Shown: positions 18,034 through 26,671, counted from the stretch's first letter. The stretch is 64,000 bases of DNA from an uncultured Methanosarcinaceae archaeon (GCA_963847185.1 CAWJYV010000010.1:448001-512000), one strand, 5' to 3'. Program-made: numbers and translations. The notes: a model not told the origin generated them from the letters alone.

Positions 18034-20691
18034 ATGTATTATGATGAAGCCGCCGATGCGGTTCTAGAAACCCTGAACACATCCGAAACAGGGTTGAGTT
18101 CGGGAGAAGCAGAAAACAGACTCATAAAGTATGGGAAAAATGAACTTCAGGAAGAAGAAAAAACATCTATGGTAAAACTTTTTCTTTCTCAGTTCAAGAG
18201 TTTTCTCATTATTATCTTAATGGCTGCAGCACTGGTTTCTGCTTTCCTTGGAGAGCTTATTGATGCTTTTGTAATCCTGTTTACGGTATTTCTTGCAGGG
18301 GTCCTTGGTTTTGTCCAGGAGTACAGAGCAGAAGAATCAATCAAACTTTTAAAATCATTGACCAGCCCCGAAGCCCTTGTAGTAAGGGACGGAAAGGAAG
18401 GAAAAGTCCCGTCTTCTGTACTTGTCCCTGGCGATATTCTAATTTTGCAGGCAGGAGATAAGATACCTGCAGATGCCAGGTTGATTGAGGCTCAATCTCT
18501 GAAGATTGATGAAGCTTCTCTCACAGGAGAATCCGTACCCGTTGAGAAAAACATTAAAATCTTTCTCCCTGAGACTCCACAGCCTGACCGAAAAAATATG
18601 GCCTATACTGGAACTTCAGTTACCTATGGTAGAGGAAAGGCAGTTGTTACTGCAACAGGCATGAATACTGCTTTTGGAAAGCTGGCCGGGCTTTTAGGAG
18701 AAATTGAAAGAGAGAGAACTCCTCTTCAGGAAAAACTTGACCAGTTCGGGCGCTGGCTTGGAGCTGCAACGCTTGTGGTTGTAGCCTTTGTAGCGGTGCT
18801 TGGGATCTTACAGGGTTTCGATCCTTTTGAGATGTTTCTATGGGGTGTTGCCCTTGCTGTTGCGGCAATTCCGGAAGCTCTTCCTGCAGTTGTGACTGTA
18901 GGGCTTGCTCTCGGGGTTAGAAGAATGGTGAAAAGGCACGCCCTTGTCAGGAAACTGCCTTCTGTAGAGACGCTTGGTTCTACTAACATAATCTGTACGG
19001 ACAAGACCGGAACGCTCACCCAGAACAAGATGACTGTCGAAAAGGTGTATGTAAACGGGACCATCTTAAATGTTACAGGTAGAGGATACGAACCTGTAGG
19101 AGACTTTTTCAGGGATGATAAGCCTGTCTCTGAAGACGCGCATCTACATAAGCTGCTGGTTGCAGGAGCTCTTTGTAATGATGCAGGATTAATCCAGGAA
19201 GAAGGAATATGGGGTATTCTGGGAGATCCTACAGAAGGTGCTCTCGTGGTTGTAGCAGCCAAACAGGGAATCTGGCGAAAGGCTCTTGAGGAGAAACACA
19301 GGCGTGTCGGAGAGGTCCCCTTTTCTTCCGAAAGGAAGATGATGACCACCCTTAACTCATCCGAAGAAGGTCTGAACGCTTATTCTAAAGGGGCTCCGGA
19401 AGTTATTCTTGGTTGCTGTACCAGAATCTTTCTTGATGGACAGGAGAAAGAGTTAACTCCTGAAATAAGGCAGGAAATTCTGGATACTGTACACGAGATG
19501 GCAAACCAAACTCTTAGAGTGATGGGTCTTGCCTACCGACAGGTTCCGGACAATATTATTCCTGAAGATGCTGAAAGGGATATGGTCTTTGCAGGCCTTA
19601 CGGGTATGCGTGATCCTCCCAGAGAAGAAGTAAAGGTTGCTATTGCTACCTGTACGAGTGCCGGGGTCAGGACCGTAATGATTACAGGAGATCACAAAAC
19701 GACTGCTTTTGCTATTGCAAGAGAAATCGGGATCTACCGTGAAGGAGATCTTGTCCTTACAGGTACTGAACTGGATGCATTAGGAGATAAGGAGTTTGAA
19801 GATATCGTAGAGAAGGTTTCTGTCTATGCAAGGGTATATCCTGAGCACAAGCTAAAGGTCGTTAACGCTCTTAAGAAAAAAGGGTATATTGTCGCAATGA
19901 CCGGAGACGGGGTAAACGATGCTCCTGCATTGAAAGCCGCAGATATGGGCATTGCAATGGGAATTACTGGAACTGAAGTAAGCAAGGAAGCGTCCAGTAT
20001 GATCCTGACAGATGACAATTTTGCATCCATTGTTTCTGCAGTCGAAGAAGGCCGAAATATATTCAAGAATATTAAGAATTTCATTGCTTACGGCCTTACC
20101 TGCCATATAGGAGTTGTGCTGATTGTCCTTGCCGGAGTGCTTGCCTGGCAGATCCTGCCTGTTATTGCAGTCCAGATTCTGTGGATCAACCTTATTACAG
20201 ACGGCCTGCCACCTTTAGCGCTTTCTCTGGAAGCCCCTGACAGGGGGCTTATGAGGCAGAAACCCAGAAAATCAAAAGAAGGGATAGTTTCAAAAAGAAT
20301 GCTTATAGCAAGCCTTGGACTAGGGATTCTGATCGCCGTCCAGTCAATTGGAGTTCTTTACTGGGCCCTTGAGGAAGGCATGCCCCTCCCAAAGATCCAG
20401 ACTCTGATCTTTACCCTGGTGGTTATGTCCTGTATGTTCAATGCCTTTAACTGGCGTTCGGAAAGATATTCGATCTTTTCCCTGGGAATTTTCACCAACA
20501 AGTCCCTTATTTATGCCATCCTGAGCACAGTGCTTTTGCAGCTTGCAGCAATCTATGTTCCTATTCTGCAGACGGCTTTCCGGACTGTACCTCTCTCACT
20601 CTCAGATTGGGGAATGATCATTCCTCTGGCTTCAACGACCCTTATAGTCATGGAGCTTACGAAATATCTGGAATGGAGAATTCACAGGTGA
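18034..20691 (+). CDS. P-type IIA (Ca2+-type) cation-transporting ATPase
   Basis: TGES, PEALP, DKTGTLT, KGAPE, MITGD, TGDGVNDAPALK, WINLITDG. Confidence 0.97.
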   Translation: MYYDEAADAVLETLNTSETGLSSGEAENRLIKYGKNELQEEEKTSMVKLFLSQFKSFLIIILMAAALVSAFLGELIDAFVILFTVFLAGVLGFVQEYRAEESIKLLKSLTSPEALVVRDGKEGKVPSSVLVPGDILILQAGDKIPADARLIEAQSLKIDEASLTGESVPVEKNIKIFLPETPQPDRKNMAYTGTSVTYGRGKAVVTATGMNTAFGKLAGLLGEIERERTPLQEKLDQFGRWLGAATLVVVAFVAVLGILQGFDPFEMFLWGVALAVAAIPEALPAVVTVGLALGVRRMVKRHALVRKLPSVETLGSTNIICTDKTGTLTQNKMTVEKVYVNGTILNVTGRGYEPVGDFFRDDKPVSEDAHLHKLLVAGALCNDAGLIQEEGIWGILGDPTEGALVVVAAKQGIWRKALEEKHRRVGEVPFSSERKMMTTLNSSEEGLNAYSKGAPEVILGCCTRIFLDGQEKELTPEIRQEILDTVHEMANQTLRVMGLAYRQVPDNIIPEDAERDMVFAGLTGMRDPPREEVKVAIATCTSAGVRTVMITGDHKTTAFAIAREIGIYREGDLVLTGTELDALGDKEFEDIVEKVSVYARVYPEHKLKVVNALKKKGYIVAMTGDGVNDAPALKAADMGIAMGITGTEVSKEASSMILTDDNFASIVSAVEEGRNIFKNIKNFIAYGLTCHIGVVLIVLAGVLAWQILPVIAVQILWINLITDGLPPLALSLEAPDRGLMRQKPRKSKEGIVSKRMLIASLGLGILIAVQSIGVLYWALEEGMPLPKIQTLIFTLVVMSCMFNAFNWRSERYSIFSLGIFTNKSLIYAILSTVLLQLAAIYVPILQTAFRTVPLSLSDWGMIIPLASTTLIVMELTKYLEWRIHR

Positions 20692-20939: not shown

Positions 20940-21806
20940 GTGAGCACTATGACCCCGATATACAGGGAGAATCCCAACTACCCGGAATTTATTGTAGGAA
21001 TCGAACCGCCTGCTGATAGGAAGGAAAAAGCACTCTGGTTCATTTTCCGGGGCCGTGAGATCCTTCTTAAGCTTAATAAAAACCCCGGAGCGATTCCGAA
21101 ATTGATTGATTTTGGAGAGACTGGGCTTTTTGGGATAAGAGAACAGTACCTGGGTACACTTAACGGTATACATTGCTATTCCATAGAACTTCCAGAGGAT
21201 GCTGAGGCACCAGAGGAAATGAAGTTTGTGGATCTCAGGCAGGCTTATTCCGAAATAAGTGAGGGGTGCTTTGCACTTGTTAATAAGGCAGTCCAGATAA
21301 TGGAATGGGACAGGACAAACCAGTTCTGCAGCCGCTGCGGGGCAAAGACCCTGCAGAAGCCCGGAGAAAGAGGAAAAGAATGTCCTGACTGCAGGGAGCT
21401 TTTTTATCCAAGAATCTCACCGGCCGTAATCGTACTTATCAGAAAAGGGAATGAAATTTTACTCGCAAGGTCGCCTAATTCCCCACCAGGCATGTATAGC
21501 TTGATTGCAGGTTTCATTGAGCCTGGAGAATCAGCTGAAGCTGCGGTTGTCAGAGAGGTTAAAGAAGAAGTAGGCATTAAGATCAGGGATATCCGCTACT
21601 TCGGGACACAGGCCTGGCCGTTTCCCAATTCGCTTATGATAGGATTTACTGCAGAGTACGATTCAGGAGATATCCAGCCTGACGGGTTTGAAATAGAAGA
21701 TGCAAAATGGTTTTCAGCTGATAAATTACCTTCACTTCCTGGAAAAATAAGTATATCAAGAAAGCTTATTGACCATTTCCTTAAAGAAGAAGGTCTGGAA
21801 GTTTAA
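20940..21806 (+). CDS. nudC: NAD(+)/NADH diphosphatase NudC
   Basis: FCSRCG..CPDC Zn ribbon, YPRISPAVIV, Nudix box AGFIEPGES.E.AV.REV.EEVG, QAWPFPNSLM. Confidence 0.95.
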   Translation: MSTMTPIYRENPNYPEFIVGIEPPADRKEKALWFIFRGREILLKLNKNPGAIPKLIDFGETGLFGIREQYLGTLNGIHCYSIELPEDAEAPEEMKFVDLRQAYSEISEGCFALVNKAVQIMEWDRTNQFCSRCGAKTLQKPGERGKECPDCRELFYPRISPAVIVLIRKGNEILLARSPNSPPGMYSLIAGFIEPGESAEAAVVREVKEEVGIKIRDIRYFGTQAWPFPNSLMIGFTAEYDSGDIQPDGFEIEDAKWFSADKLPSLPGKISISRKLIDHFLKEEGLEV

Positions 21807-22417
21807 GTTCCTGATCAGAGTCTGATTTCAGAGCTTGACTCATAGTTCGATTCATCTATTTACAAGGTTTTTAACATAACCATTTCCAAGATTACCATCA
21901 GACAGCCCCATATTATTATTCTTTCCCAAATAATTGGAAAATGATTATTAACCTGCATTCGGCAAATGGACGCAAAAATTCATTTCATTTTTTACTAATA
22001 TCGTTTTTCTCAAGACTTCTAACATTATGTTATTAGATACATTTTCTAAATGTTACCAATATATTCGCAAATTTATATTTAGTGTAAGTTTGTAGAATAA
22101 TAAACAGTGAGATGCGTAGTCTATTGATTTTTAGCTTTTTTACCATAAAAGTGCAATCAAAAATTTATATATGTTGAGGCGTTTGCTGTCGAATGCAGGA
22201 AATAATAGTAAACTTATAATTTCACCACAATTTGCTTTCTGAGACTTGTAAGAAAATATTCCTTATAACAGTTAAGGACTGATACACACGAGCAGGAAAT
22301 GTCTATTACCCGTAATAAACCAGTACGGGAAATACATATAAAAGAAAATACATAATTTAGACACGATCAAAAGGTTTATTAAAATTAAGAACATTATAAA
22401 AAAGAGAGGATTAGTCT

Positions 22418-22520
22418 AAAAAGAAATTAAGAAGTAGATGGTAGAGATCGAGTCCCTATTCTCGTCTCTACCCGCGATCCAACCCAAAGATTAAGAGGAA
22501 ACCCTATTACTCTTAATCTA
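22418..22520 (-). ncRNA. Candidate two-hairpin small RNA, copy 1
   Basis: Stems 22440-22452/22461-22472 and 22488-22497/22510-22519; conserved linker GATCCAACCC. Minus-strand TATA-like element ~30 nt before the stem and a U-tract after. Strand is inferred. Confidence 0.7.
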
Positions 22521-22833
22521 TACATTTATAGGAGATATGGAATATATATCATAACCGATCAAAAAAACATATCGTGATTCAAATTTTTAAGCTTGCTCTA
22601 TAATTTATTATCGATTAAACTTTTAATGGCGTTAAAATTTTCATGTGGAATATAAATCATTCTTTATAAAAGGAGCCTATGATAATCTATCCTAAATAAT
22701 TAAGGAATTTAGAAATTTAGGAACACTCATAAGCTTTATTTAAAATTAAAAACATTATAAAAAACAGTAAGGAAAGCATAAAATAAGTTACATAGTGTAC
22801 AAATAAAATACTTATTTATTGCAAGTGACAATC

Positions 22834-22927
22834 AAGAAGTAGATGGTAGGGATCGAGTCCCTATTCTCGTCCCTACCTGCGATCCAACCCAAAGATTAAG
22901 AGGAAACCCTATATTACTCTTAATCTA
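22834..22927 (-). ncRNA. Candidate two-hairpin small RNA, copy 2
   Basis: Near-identical to copy 1, 405 bp away, with a compensatory A-T to G-C change (GGTAGAGA/TCTCTACC to GGTAGGGA/TCCCTACC). Confidence 0.7.
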
Positions 22928-23230
22928 CATTCATTTTATAATCATTTAGACATATATATCATAACCGCTTCAAAAATTACGCTATGATAAGAATTTTTAA
23001 TTAGGTTAAATCCTTTAATCCCATTTGAAATTTTAATATCTTCAAAATATTTTCTGTTTTTAAAGTGATTCATTGAACTTTTGTCTAGAAGAGAAAAGTA
23101 AAAACAATATGAGAATTTAAGATATTAAAAATAAAGTTTACAATTTATTAAACGTTAACAGCAATGAGTTTAGAATAAGATAATTAAACAACTAGATCAA
23201 TAAAAAAATCTATGAAAACCTACATAATTA

Positions 23231-23325
23231 ATTGATAGGGACCCTGTTCCCATTTAGCTGGTCCCTATCGATGATCCAACCCCAAGGAGATTGAGAGGAA
23301 ACCCTTACTCTCAACCTTTCTCCCT
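23231..23325 (-). ncRNA. Candidate two-hairpin small RNA, copy 3 (diverged)
   Basis: GATAGGGACC/GGTCCCTATC stem, GATCCAACCC linker, TTGAGAG-GAAACCCTTA-CTCTCAA stem-loop; same flanking promoter-like block. Confidence 0.65.
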
Positions 23326-23703
23326 TTATAGTTTACAAGCTATATATTATAGCCGATTTAAAAAATAATCTTTGATTAAATTTATTGATTAGCCACATAT
23401 TTTTATTACCTTTAAAAATTTTAATATCATTAAAACAGTATCTGAAATTCGTTAGTTTTTCCCTCATTTTCTATTTATTCACTTTTAAAAGTAACCTCAA
23501 TTTTTCGTAGCATTGAAACTGCACCTTAACCTTCAATATTAAGCTGTAAGCTTAAAAATTATAATAGAATTAAGCAAGATCAGAAAGAAATGAAATTAAT
23601 GATGAAAGAATGAAAATAAATATAGAGATGAAATAGAATAGAAAAATAATGAAGAGAAGAATAAAATAGAGAAGAAAGAAGAAATGGAAAAAATCCTATC
23701 TCC

Positions 23704-24876
23704 TCAGATAATATATGACCTTAGCGGAGGAAAGCCGTTAAAATTCACTGAACTATAACTTTGAGTGTACGCGCCTGTTGTAAAGATATATACATGATTT
23801 CCTTCTCTCATTGTGTGAGGGAAGGAATATTTGTGGTGTTCATACAAAATATCCATGCTATCGCAGGTTGGACCTGCAAGGATTACTTCTTCGGCACAAC
23901 CCTTTTTGTCGCAGAATATGGGATACTTAATGGACTCATCAAGTGTTTCTATAAGGCCCCCGAATTTACCAATGTCGAGATAAACCCATTTGTACTGATT
24001 GAACCTGGCCTTTTTTGCGATCATTACAACTTCACTTACGATTATGCCGGCATTACCAACCAGAGATCTACCGGGTTCAATTAGAATTTCAGGTAATTCC
24101 TCCCCAAAATCTTCATGCAAAAAGCGGCGGATCTCACGGGCATAAGTTTCAAGGTCATGAGCCTGCGCCTGGTATTTTGCGGGAAAACCTCCTCCGAGGT
24201 TGATCATTTTTAAACGGATACCTTTTTCAGCAACTGCTTCAAAGAGGTATTTGCATTTGGAAATAGCATTGTCCCACTGCCCAATGTCCCTCTGCTGGGA
24301 ACCAACATGGAAAGAAAGTCCATATGGCTCAAGTCCAAGCTTGTCAGCCTTAAGAATAAACTTGTATATAAGGTCAGGATGCGATCCGAATTTCCGTGAA
24401 AGAGGCCAATCAGCGCCATCGCTTTCAGTAAGGATCCGGAAAAAGACCCTGGAACCCGGAGCTCTTCTAGCTAATTTCTTTAAATCACTTTCAGAATCAG
24501 TAACAAAAAGCCTTACTCCCTTTTCATACGCATAAGCTATATCCTTTTCTTTTTTGATTGTGTTTCCATAACTGATCCTCTCAGGTTCCACCCCGAGCCT
24601 GAGTAACTGGTCCAGTTCATAAACCGTTGCCACATCAAAACTAGAGCCTTTATTTTTCAGAGCAAGCACAACTTCATCCATAGGGTTTGCCTTTACAGCA
24701 TAATGAATTTTTGCAAAAGGCATGTGCTCTACCAGCTCTTCATAACCTCGCTCTATCTTCTGCAGATCAACGATTAAAAAAGGTGTCTCTTTATCCCGGG
24801 AAAACTTTTTTATTTTGTTAAAGTACTCTCTGGAAACAAAGTCCTCCAGCGGGAATTCATAACGCTCTTTTCTCAT
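23704..24876 (-). CDS. Fold-type III PLP-dependent ornithine/lysine decarboxylase
   Basis: YAVKANP (PLP lysine), FDVA, KFG, SFHVGSQ, NLGGGFP, EPGR, GPTCDSMD, GAYT, FNGF. Confidence 0.95.
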   Translation of the reverse strand: MRKERYEFPLEDFVSREYFNKIKKFSRDKETPFLIVDLQKIERGYEELVEHMPFAKIHYAVKANPMDEVVLALKNKGSSFDVATVYELDQLLRLGVEPERISYGNTIKKEKDIAYAYEKGVRLFVTDSESDLKKLARRAPGSRVFFRILTESDGADWPLSRKFGSHPDLIYKFILKADKLGLEPYGLSFHVGSQQRDIGQWDNAISKCKYLFEAVAEKGIRLKMINLGGGFPAKYQAQAHDLETYAREIRRFLHEDFGEELPEILIEPGRSLVGNAGIIVSEVVMIAKKARFNQYKWVYLDIGKFGGLIETLDESIKYPIFCDKKGCAEEVILAGPTCDSMDILYEHHKYSFPHTMREGNHVYIFTTGAYTQSYSSVNFNGFPPLRSYII

Positions 24877-25387: not shown

Positions 25388-26671
25388 TTATAGGGGGCCT
25401 TTCTTTCCGGTTATGAGCAGTACTATGAGTATACTGATTCCTACAAGAATAAATCCGTAAGTTATGGCTTCTGCATTTAACTGAGAAAAGAGAAACAAAG
25501 AAGAAAGAACTCCAAAAAAAGGAATTAAGGGTAACCGGCCTATACTAAAAGGAACCTTAAAAGGACGCTTTCTTTCAGGATCAGAATAACGGAGCTTTAT
25601 AAGAGAGAGGTTAACCATAAGAAAAACAATAAAAATCATAAAGTTAGCGATATTTGCTATAGTTATAATATCTCTGAATAAGACAAACAAAATTGAAAGA
25701 CATGCAATTCCGAAAATTGCAACCCAGGGAGTCTGGTAATGGCTGTGTACCCTTGAGAGGCTTCTTGGAAGGGAGCCTGCATGCGCCATGCCGTAAACAA
25801 TCCTTGACCCTCCAAGCATAACCACAAGTACGGTATTCATCGTGGAAAAAAGAGCAATCCAGGAAAGAAGGACAAAAGCATTATCTCCAAGAGCTACAGC
25901 TGCAACATCGGCAAGAGGGACACTTGAGAGCCCGAGAGTGTTATAATTAAGCACACTTACTGAAGTTACTGCAACACAAATATAAAGAAAAACTGTAGAA
26001 AATATGGCTATGAGCAAAGCTTTAGGAGTTGTTTTCTCTGCATCCTTTGTTTCCTGAGATAGTCTCACAATGTCTTCAAAACCCAGGAATGCAAAAATAA
26101 TCAGAGCAGAAGCCTCAAAGATACCTGACAGATCCGGAGCCTCAAAGTAATTTACAGTACCAAGGTAAGGGAGGCCAATATAAATAATAATCAGAAGCCC
26201 GGACAATTCAATCAGGGTTATGGAAATAGCCAGCCGCGCAGACTCCCTGATTCCGTAAACCATAATCAGACTGAGAACAATAAAGAGACCTACTGAACCT
26301 ATTAAATTTCCGATTCCGAAAAGAGAGTTGAAATATCTTCCAAAGCCGAGGGCGACCGCAGAACTGGTTATTACCACAAAGTAGACAACAAGAAGCCCTA
26401 CAAATAAGCCCATACGTTCCCCAAAAGCTCTTTTCACAAACTCATATTCTGCCCCTGCTCTTGGATACATGGAAGATAGCTCCATGTAGCTAAGCGCGGA
26501 AAGTGCAGCAGTAATTCCTGCAAAAAGGAAGGAAAACCAGACCATATTGCCTGCAAGCCCTGCAGCTTTTCCCATAAGCACATAGATTCCGGCTCCAAGG
26601 ATATTCCCAATTCCCACCAGAGTAATCTCCAGTAAACTCAATTCTCTTTTTAGTTCGGATTTTCCTTCCAT
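25388..26671 (-). CDS. APC-family amino acid/polyamine permease
   Basis: LKREL, GNILGAGIY, ELSSMYPRAG, FAFLGFE, RPFKVP; about 12 hydrophobic segments. Confidence 0.93.
   Translation of the reverse strand: MEGKSELKRELSLLEITLVGIGNILGAGIYVLMGKAAGLAGNMVWFSFLFAGITAALSALSYMELSSMYPRAGAEYEFVKRAFGERMGLFVGLLVVYFVVITSSAVALGFGRYFNSLFGIGNLIGSVGLFIVLSLIMVYGIRESARLAISITLIELSGLLIIIYIGLPYLGTVNYFEAPDLSGIFEASALIIFAFLGFEDIVRLSQETKDAEKTTPKALLIAIFSTVFLYICVAVTSVSVLNYNTLGLSSVPLADVAAVALGDNAFVLLSWIALFSTMNTVLVVMLGGSRIVYGMAHAGSLPRSLSRVHSHYQTPWVAIFGIACLSILFVLFRDIITIANIANFMIFIVFLMVNLSLIKLRYSDPERKRPFKVPFSIGRLPLIPFFGVLSSLFLFSQLNAEAITYGFILVGISILIVLLITGKKGPL

Follow-up and report, generated by a model that had tools for sequence, protein, structure and literature searches.

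Among methanogens, Methanosarcina serves as the principal genetic model, and we know of a role for only three of its ~250 catalogued sRNAs. sRNA41 is reportedly a characterised M. mazei sRNA of the same general kind as the elements discussed below, and to our knowledge neither it nor sRNA154 and sRNA162 have been described as multicopy. The reports on sRNA162 (PMC3510493) and sRNA154 (PMC3177094) portray structured, intergenic RNAs of 60-200 nt that, like the present family, are restricted to the genus, carry their own promoter and are presumed to act in trans; their mRNA targets are known. LhrC1-5 of Listeria (PMC4132741) and the CsrB copies (PMC6262261) exemplify sibling or multicopy bacterial sRNAs, with near-identical and separately promoted copies, some of them in tandem, and with repeated conserved loop motifs. 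These features recur in our family, as does, probably, the control of all copies by one regulator. In contrast to LhrC and CsrB, the family has archaeal promoters and an AAUAGGG loop instead of GGA or C-rich anti-SD motifs. The circular archaeal C/D box sRNAs, closed via an Rnl-type ligase (PMC9014305), and the circles that depend on a bulge-helix-bulge motif are small, stable and abundant, and the family resembles them in these respects. It too displays head-to-tail junctions in RNA libraries alongside a ligase homologue, but neither C/D boxes nor a bulge-helix-bulge motif were seen on reading the sequence, and genomic dimers can explain its junctions.

The window analysed here is the whole stretch of 64,000 nucleotides from an uncultured Methanosarcinaceae archaeon. 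Between a nudC-type and a decarboxylase gene it holds a gap of 1897 nt, in which the longest ORF has 44 aa and three units are linked by families of direct repeats (Table 1). An earlier, sequence-only reading had described an ORF-poor gap of 1.9 kb with three elements, all of which are present in the sequence; of its two spacings, 405 nt is matched, while the 389 nt given for the other compares with 392-395 nt here, depending on the anchor. The block conserved among the copies measures ~215 nt on the minus strand and includes the AT-rich promoter region. The scores of the copies with a covariance model (Table 1) indicate a resemblance beyond chance. Copy 3 constitutes a divergent subtype, with GGGGUUGGAUCAUC and an altered apical part of the 3' hairpin, and resembles the M. 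mazei sRNA084 subtype when compared with the published sRNA084 sequence. The RNA ends of the three copies were placed by analogy with annotated M. mazei members. A T-rich run after copy 1, pointed out before as a U-tract, was found and possibly acts as an archaeal oligo-U terminator. ARAGORN detected no tRNA or tmRNA in the window. We regard the three elements as, very probably, independent small non-coding RNA genes that are confined to Methanosarcina, occupy the position of sRNA146 and sRNA145 of M. mazei, and putatively act in trans.

Table 1. Features of the array and its flanking genes (positions counted from the first letter of the window).
Feature	Position	Strand	Basis or remark
NUDIX/NADH-pyrophosphatase gene (nudC)	20940-21806	+	left flank of the gap
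T-rich stretch UAAUUUCUUUUUAG (RNA strand) after copy 1	22416-22429	-	read from sequence
Probable sRNA gene copy 1	22430-22521	-	predicted ends; model match 22423-22524, 111.4 bits
Copy 1 AT-rich proximal box CTATAAA	22525-22531	-	aligned flanks
Copy 1 promoter core, BRE/TATA block ATCGGTTATGATATATAT	22542-22559	-	aligned flanks
Copy 1 palindrome TTTTAATGGCGTTAAAA	22621-22637	strandless	~83 nt upstream of TATA block
Probable sRNA gene copy 2	22835-22931	-	model match 22828-22931, 104.9 bits
Copy 2 proximal box TTATAAA	22935-22941	-	aligned flanks
Copy 2 promoter core	22952-22969	-	aligned flanks
Copy 2 palindrome TTTTAATATCTTCAAAA (+ strand reading)	23031-23047	strandless	sequence
Probable sRNA gene copy 3	23224-23321	-	model match 23217-23322, 65.8 bits
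Copy 3 proximal box	23325-23331	-	aligned flanks
Copy 3 promoter core ATCGGCTATAATATATAG	23340-23357	-	aligned flanks
Copy 3 palindrome TTTTAATATCATTAAAA	23419-23435	strandless	sequence
PLP-dependent Orn/DAP/Arg-type decarboxylase gene	23704-24876	-	right flank of the gap

The closest relatives of the units are already catalogued. A motif search of the supplementary tables of a ribosome-profiling (Ribo-seq) study of M. mazei Gö1 (PMC11456600) brought up four names, all on the minus strand of NC_003901.1: sRNA146 (3871088-3871270, 183 nt), sRNA145 (3870821-3870917, 97 nt), spRNA41 (3812382-3812475, 94 nt) and sRNA084 (1915284-1915379, 96 nt). Within the sRNA table the motifs matched sRNA146, spRNA41 and sRNA084 only, plus a chance 9-mer in spRNA05. 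The published sense sequences agree with the strand deduced here and end in ...CUACUUCU(A), so that the M. mazei RNAs share sequence family, strand logic and size (94-97 nt) with the units of the window. The M. mazei locus in one genome of our survey (G012) is letter-identical, in a comparison by eye, to the published sRNA146 and sRNA145, and its two copies score 84.4 and 98.1 bits with the model built from the window's genome. The pair lies just 3' of a decarboxylase gene 91.5% identical to that of the window, with a permease gene adjoining. Decarboxylase (91.5%) and permease (~79-82%) are found directly upstream of the pair at two loci of the survey, the decarboxylase stands beside sRNA loci at four others, and the post-decarboxylase position is kept in at least six other genomes. 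Identity and decarboxylase synteny together imply that the array is the positional counterpart of the sRNA146/145 locus, which comprises two genes in M. mazei and three in the species of the window.

In M. mazei, the family forms abundant, discrete transcripts of the expected size (PMC11456600). RNA base means of the four members are 7219, 1578, 594 and 387 in the same tables; the highest, that of sRNA146, compares with 5063 for sRNA162, 18145 for sRNA154 and 285575 for sRNA041. None of the four responds significantly to nitrogen (log2 fold changes of -0.33 to 0.65, adjusted p of 0.25-0.60; PMC11456600). Their names are absent from the main text of that paper and from a 2025 preprint on spRNAs, and searches for them in the full-text literature returned unrelated bacterial papers only. 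We found no published function, structure or family definition in a search that left Jäger et al. 2009 aside; the sRNA numbering presumably goes back to that publication (PNAS).

The units are orthologues of catalogued M. mazei sRNAs that have no described function, and since these RNAs were already listed in Methanosarcina, most of the novelty claimed in the sequence-only reading is gone. That reading had itself allowed for a described Methanosarcina sRNA, and the members are indeed the catalogued sRNA145, sRNA146, sRNA084 and spRNA41. Its term "unannotated" holds for the genome of the window and for Rfam, not for M. mazei. By contrast, the match that it considered, to M. mazei sRNA41, sRNA154 or sRNA162, did not materialise: by eye and in motif searches, the family motifs occur in none of the three sequences. 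Rfam 15 likewise returned no match at the gathering threshold across the whole window, and at E <= 10 the best match between 21800 and 23750 had an E-value of 3.7, with nothing above 17 bits. Both the observation and the interpretation of the sequence-only reading are right, the former being confirmed and the latter supported, with its own caveat applying.

The consensus fold obtained with RNAalifold from 11 copies of the window's own genome has a 5' hairpin followed by a long 3' hairpin with interruptions, and four helical elements in total. P1 is a 10-bp hairpin (AGAUUAAGAG/CUCUUAAUCU) with the loop UAAUAGGGUUUC; it is followed by UU and the long hairpin, which begins with P2 (GGGUUGGAU/AUCUACUUC) and continues beyond a 4-nt bulge with P3 (GGUAGGG/CUCUACC in the 11-copy fold, GGUAGAG/CUCUACC in copy 1) and a short apical stem capped by the loop AAUAGGGA. 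The tips of both hairpins carry near-identical loops of the form GAG-(U)AAUAGGG-(UUUC or A)-CUC. These two tips are the best-conserved unpaired parts, next to the GGGUUGGAU segment. The linker previously called invariant, GATCCAACCC, is present, but is not single-stranded, as on the minus strand GGGUUGGAU pairs with AUCUACUUC at the 3' end and lengthens hairpin A of the sequence-only reading. The stem variants reported for hairpin A (GGTAGAGA/TCTCTACC, GGTAGGGA/TCCCTACC and GATAGGGA/TCCCTATC) and for hairpin B (TTAAGAG/CTCTTAA and TTGAGAG/CTCTCAA) are all legible in the sequence. The predicted fold brings the two ends of the RNA together where its hairpins join.

Substitutions in the family largely respect this fold. 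Among 50 model-aligned sequences 97.3% of the cells are paired and 13 of the 32 pairs display double-sided changes. The larger set of 101 distinct sequences, which adds further loci including those of two sister genera, has 95.1% of cells paired, compared with 40-58% when the partners are slid, and changes on both sides in 16 of the 32 pairs (159 cells), in agreement with the structural selection postulated earlier. These alignments were fitted to the structure of the model, which biases the pair counts towards the fold. In a shuffle control on the 101 sequences, none of 500 replicates reached any of five pairing measures, a significance that is overstated by the mutual relatedness of the sequences. 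We interpret the compensatory changes together with the invariant loops as selection acting on an RNA.

The transcribed strand is indicated by G-U pairs. Three such pairs in P2 occur in 98, 94 and 94 of the 101 sequences and another, in P3, in 17; because all of them would be A-C on the plus strand, the minus strand is the RNA strand. The promoter lies on the same side, and both observations agree with the orientation favoured before. Folding of single sequences leans to the plus strand, with z-scores of -4.7, -4.2 and -5.5 for the three copies against -2.1, -1.9 and -1.5 on the minus strand. Guide RNAs of the C/D type carry a C box (RUGAUGA) and a D box (CUGA) at their ends with a K-turn, and those of the H/ACA type an ACA tail and a pseudouridylation pocket; in the units, neither a C box nor a 3' ACA was found. 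CUGA follows some copies of the family, none of them among the three of the window.

Each copy is preceded by a promoter of uniform design (Table 1), in which the TATA-like boxes of the sequence-only reading were located. The core is common to 71 promoter-bearing units from many species, and consists of a T-run, GGTCGGTTATGATATATAT, ~10 variable bases, TTATAAA, 4-7 bases and (U)AGAUU. For all three annotated M. mazei members whose flank was seen, the 5' end lies 21 nt past the final T of the TATA run. In the window, this spacing places the starts near 22521, 22931 and 23321, and the 5' ends proposed before (22520, 22927 and 23320) are 1-4 nt away from ends derived in this way. Promoter layout and unit alignment thus bear out the idea of ~100-nt units with separate promoters. 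Further upstream, ~85 nt from the TATA block, follows a 17-bp palindrome with the consensus TTTTAATGNCATTAAAA. At least 13 of its 16 defined positions are matched in 59 of the 71 promoters, as opposed to 33 of 1420 shuffled controls, and 55 of the 67 sites with at least 12 matches share a single 5-nt position bin. We regard it as a putative operator, at which a dimeric transcription factor may co-regulate all copies.

The family is multicopy, as had been surmised, and is dispersed well beyond the array. A BLAST search with copy 1 against its own genome (4.04 Mb in 10 contigs, 99.8% complete) yielded 11 copies at E <= 4e-5 among the 27 matches listed. The covariance model built from these 11 copies finds 13 matches at E < 1e-4 in the same genome (11 strong and two weak copies) and one further at an E-value of 0.3. 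The model also recovers the family across the genus: of 36 other genomes drawn from it, 32 have between 1 and 17 matches each, and five other families of the order, represented by 24 genomes, have none. A survey of the taxonomic family with the same model was positive for all 29 genomes of the genus itself (g1), for both genomes of the GTDB genus g14 and for all six of g25, which corresponds to three of 16 genera; 103 genomes across the 13 other genera of the taxonomic family had no match. An exact-pattern scan with one genome per species returned 113 loci. Where the record titles name a taxon, this is Methanosarcina, Methanosarcinaceae, Methanosarcinales or Methanobacteriota, with the exception of three loci on two short MAG contigs that carry the labels Bacillota and Bacteroidales and have probably been mis-binned; four loci are on a record titled just "metagenome genome assembly". 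No locus with the pattern was found in viral contigs.

The neighbours of the 13 copies in the window's genome are mixed and include PAS histidine kinases, PKD-domain proteins, transposases and metabolic genes. A Pfam run on 62 ORFs near the ten other sites, and on the four genes flanking the array, revealed no recurrent partner gene, and the 13 copies have no consistent downstream gene on the same strand. Mixed neighbourhoods of this kind, with no steady downstream gene, favour stand-alone genes that act in trans. They also lack the arrangement of a type III toxin-antitoxin RNA (ToxI-like), in which a gene for a toxin endoribonuclease immediately follows the tandem repeats, and no ORF was seen 3' of the dimer locus described below within the flanks inspected.

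Two other explanations of the units deserve consideration, and we judge both to be improbable. According to one of them, they would be genes for translated small ORFs. Three members have small ORFs which were curated manually as "yes" from ribosome profiling (PMC11456600), in copy 1 an ATG located 6 nt ahead of the hairpin opens a frame that ends at a TAA beyond the unit, and the N-terminal peptide part RLRVIGFPLNL is repeated in many copies. This recurrence can be attributed to the conservation of the P1 nucleotides, however. In 42 of 100 units no in-frame ATG, GTG or TTG follows the last stop; where starts are present they vary (TTG at -12 in 25 units, ATG at -21 in 14), the stop follows the conserved GGG codon at any of 15 different distances between 6 and 36 codons, and three or more reading frames are represented among the C-terminal halves. 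The TTG start is placed inside a stem position that alternates between A-U (55) and G-C (44) and so covaries with its partner, which argues for selection on RNA structure. The published data themselves point in the same direction: the proposed ATG of spRNA41 begins 4 nt upstream of the RNA's annotated 5' end, translation efficiencies are 0.11-0.41, the proteomics columns are empty and BlastP is given as "no" (PMC11456600). For comparison, one CDS row of the tables has a translation efficiency of 2.6. Moreover, an abundant structured RNA or RNP could leave MNase footprints that resemble ribosome protection. We consider it probable that the small ORFs of the ribosome-profiling study are not genes.

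The other explanation, a selfish MITE-like repeat that has no RNA function, or cis-acting leaders of the neighbouring genes, appears still more remote. The copies are multicopy and dispersed, some sites are situated in variable regions near transposase genes (IS200-like, IS4/5, IS66, DDE), and the ~215 nt including the promoter were duplicated as a single block, all of which would suit a mobile element. Against mobility, the aligned flanks display neither terminal inverted repeats nor target-site duplications, the position behind the decarboxylase is conserved, viral contigs gave no match, and the compensatory changes and invariant loops, like the discrete abundant transcripts of M. mazei (PMC11456600), are those of a selected RNA. 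A leader function conflicts with the inconstant downstream genes and with the orientation of copy 1, which converges on nudC. We accordingly retain the reading as non-coding RNA genes.

Copies from relatives are present in public RNA libraries. The window organism's own sequence occurs in no public run, and the relatives' copies come from two metatranscriptome studies (soil and sludge). Three RNA libraries of these studies (X2, X3 and X4) contain contigs that span copy 2 at 22835-22927, where word depths are 587 and 111 for X3 and at most 84 for X4; one X4 contig spans copy 3 at 23224-23307, and spacers and promoters have no contig cover in X3 and X4, a gap that we do not read as a sign of silence. 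A further library, X1, was left out because it is probably DNA of a relative. Contigs of this kind demonstrate presence in RNA libraries and are silent on strand, ends and level.

Several of the contigs run from the 3' end of a unit (22835) into a unit 5' start (22519/22520) via 2-6 letters, which raises the question of whether the mature form is a closed circle of ~95 nt, or a monomer excised from head-to-tail precursors. Two contigs, of 125 nt (depth 587, X3) and 126 nt (depth 84, X4), are one period plus 30 long, as expected of a cycle that closes in a k=31 graph, and start at different phases; their length is thus suggestive of a circular RNA. The ends of the predicted fold abut, and the genome encodes a 392-aa member of the ATP-dependent RNA ligases (PF09414, Rnl-family). 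However, the DNA of at least nine of the 33 genomes with matches contains head-to-tail dimers whose period is 94-102 nt. At the dimer locus, which is conserved in many genomes, a second unit that has no promoter trails the first head to tail. Among 11 distinct genomic dimer junctions, one with 2 letters is the junction of the deepest contig, and the contigs may represent transcripts of the dimer locus split by repeat branching of the graph. A bulge-helix-bulge motif was not seen by eye on the aligned copies and dimer loci, and the M. mazei annotation is of linear RNAs of 94-97 nt. As the genomic dimers share the junctions, their transcripts account for the joints, and circles, albeit possible, are not needed; we consider a circular or excised mature form unlikely.

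For the linear sRNA genes that we favour, the following mode of action can be envisaged. One transcription factor would bind the palindrome and co-regulate all copies; transcription proceeds from the strong archaeal promoter formed by GGTTATGATATATAT and the TTATAAA box, starting ~21 nt past the TATA run; and the resulting RNA of ~95 nt, with the 3' end ...CAUCUACUUCU, folds into the 10-bp 5' hairpin and the long 3' hairpin. The product may be an abundant structured regulator which acts in trans by its invariant loop and linker module.

The module recurs in a further, tandem family of the genus, for which Rfam gave no match. Its units of 138-141 nt form head-to-tail arrays; seven units were counted at four sites in the window's own genome, and 22 of 24 genomes of the genus possess the family. 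It carries the same hairpin loop, AGG-AAUAGGGUUU-CCU, as well as the UUUGGGUUGGAU segment, which is followed by a UUUGAG/CUCAAA hairpin. The occurrence of the loop hairpin and UUUGGGUUGGAU in both families implies that two RNAs of different construction retain one bipartite module. The 95-nt RNAs each display the loop twice, and a search of the genome for complements of loops and linker identified no clear antisense target; its 11-12-mers were sense copies of the motif, by which the second family was found. Taken together, the shared module, the doubled loop and the missing antisense target favour recognition by a common protein over seed pairing. We tentatively assign somewhat less than an even chance to an action by binding or titrating a common protein partner, and a lower one to base-pairing with mRNAs; something else takes up the remainder.

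A sponge of the CsrB/Rsm type, which would have GGA motifs in several loops and a cognate CsrA/RsmA protein, was rejected. The loops carry GGG(A/U), two per RNA, and no CsrA is encoded: PF02599 had no match in the 99.8%-complete genome, while control genomes do match. The lack of CsrA leaves no known sponge partner. An elaborate version of protein binding would be a Methanosarcina RNP in which one protein reads the module of AAUAGGGUUU hairpin and UUUGGGUUGGAU in both families, stable 95-nt dumbbells, partly as circles or cut monomers, titrate this protein, and the palindrome factor sets the dose. We regard this combination as unlikely in its entirety.

New with respect to the catalogued RNAs are the definition of the family, its covariation-backed fold, its strand and distribution, and the genus-wide promoter with a palindrome at a fixed position, and likewise the promoter-less dimer locus, the case against coding, and the second, related tandem family. 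For those who study Methanosarcina, the covariance model is a potential Rfam entry and the list of paralogues names the copies to be silenced together; the candidate operator offers a handle for finding the regulator, and the conserved loop module one for pull-downs. The small ORFs assigned to family RNAs by ribosome profiling call for caution, being probably not genes. The family is among the better-expressed sRNAs of Methanosarcina, occurs in nearly all genomes of the genus with 1-17 copies, and keeps an unusually rigid promoter together with an upstream putative operator.

A second repeat family forms head-to-tail arrays of 138-141-nt units. Like the sRNA family, it carries a hairpin with the loop AAUAGGGUUU, the segment UUUGGGUUGGAU and a further hairpin, UUUGAG/CUCAAA. 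Its 3' segment CCCAAAG is the complement of CUUUGGG, and unit 3 carries an apparent compensatory change in this pairing. The second family occurs in 22 of 24 genomes of the genus; neither a comparison with Rfam nor a motif search of the M. mazei tables gave a match to it.

Relatives keep a conserved locus in which sRNA unit 1 is followed head to tail by a unit 2 lacking a promoter, the junctions reading CUUCU-AUGU-(U/G)AGAUU, CUUAU-AUAAU-AAGAUU or CUUCU-GU-UAGAUU; no such dimer without a second promoter was found in the window's own genome. Two divergent family members, each with a TATA-like box of its own, have the loop changed to UUAAAGGGUUAUC and the linker to UUUGGUUGAAUC. The otherwise Methanosarcina-restricted sRNA gene is also present on short MAG contigs labelled Bacillota and Bacteroidales (L112 and L113, both JAEZHM010000025.1; L204, CAYVEW010000478.1), which are probably mis-binned.

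Ribosome profiling called sORF_162, sORF_278 and sORF_284 on sRNA084, spRNA41 and sRNA146 (supplement of PMC11456600). These calls lie within the covarying hairpins and their reading frames are not conserved; they are likely false positives caused by abundant structured RNA.

The decarboxylase-permease pair adjoins the sRNA locus in other species too. Elsewhere, the window's own genome has an ORF of 392 aa that belongs to PF09414, a family of ATP-dependent RNA ligases; Thermococcales members of this family are described in PMC9014305 as circularising small RNAs.

Coordinates of the features (L, extracted loci; G000, the window's own genome, with its contigs C1, C7 and C8)
Feature	Position	Position in G000	Strand	Remark
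Palindrome	window 22621-22637			upstream of copy 1
Palindrome	window 23031-23047			upstream of copy 2
Palindrome	window 23419-23435			upstream of copy 3
Second family, array	L020:1333-1726	C7:331557-331950	+
Second family, site		C1:273032-273255	-
Second family, site		C8:1018459-1018540	+
Second family, site		C7:400301-400374	+
sRNA dimer, relatives	L050:1501-1700
sRNA dimer, relatives	L052:559-754
sRNA dimer, relatives	L053:444-645
sRNA dimer, relatives	L041:728-927
sRNA dimer, relatives	L207:1-149
Divergent sRNA	L063:5914-6019		-	39 bits
Divergent sRNA	L058:5894-6005		+	38 bits
P-type cation ATPase	window 18034-20691		+	upstream of nudC
Amino-acid permease	window 25388-26671		-	adjoins decarboxylase
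RNA ligase ORF	L214:1501-1968	C7:35618-36085	+	107 bits

The 17-bp palindrome TTTTAATGNCATTAAAA stands at a constant distance 5' of nearly all genes of the sRNA family, across species, and is a candidate operator for a putative regulator.
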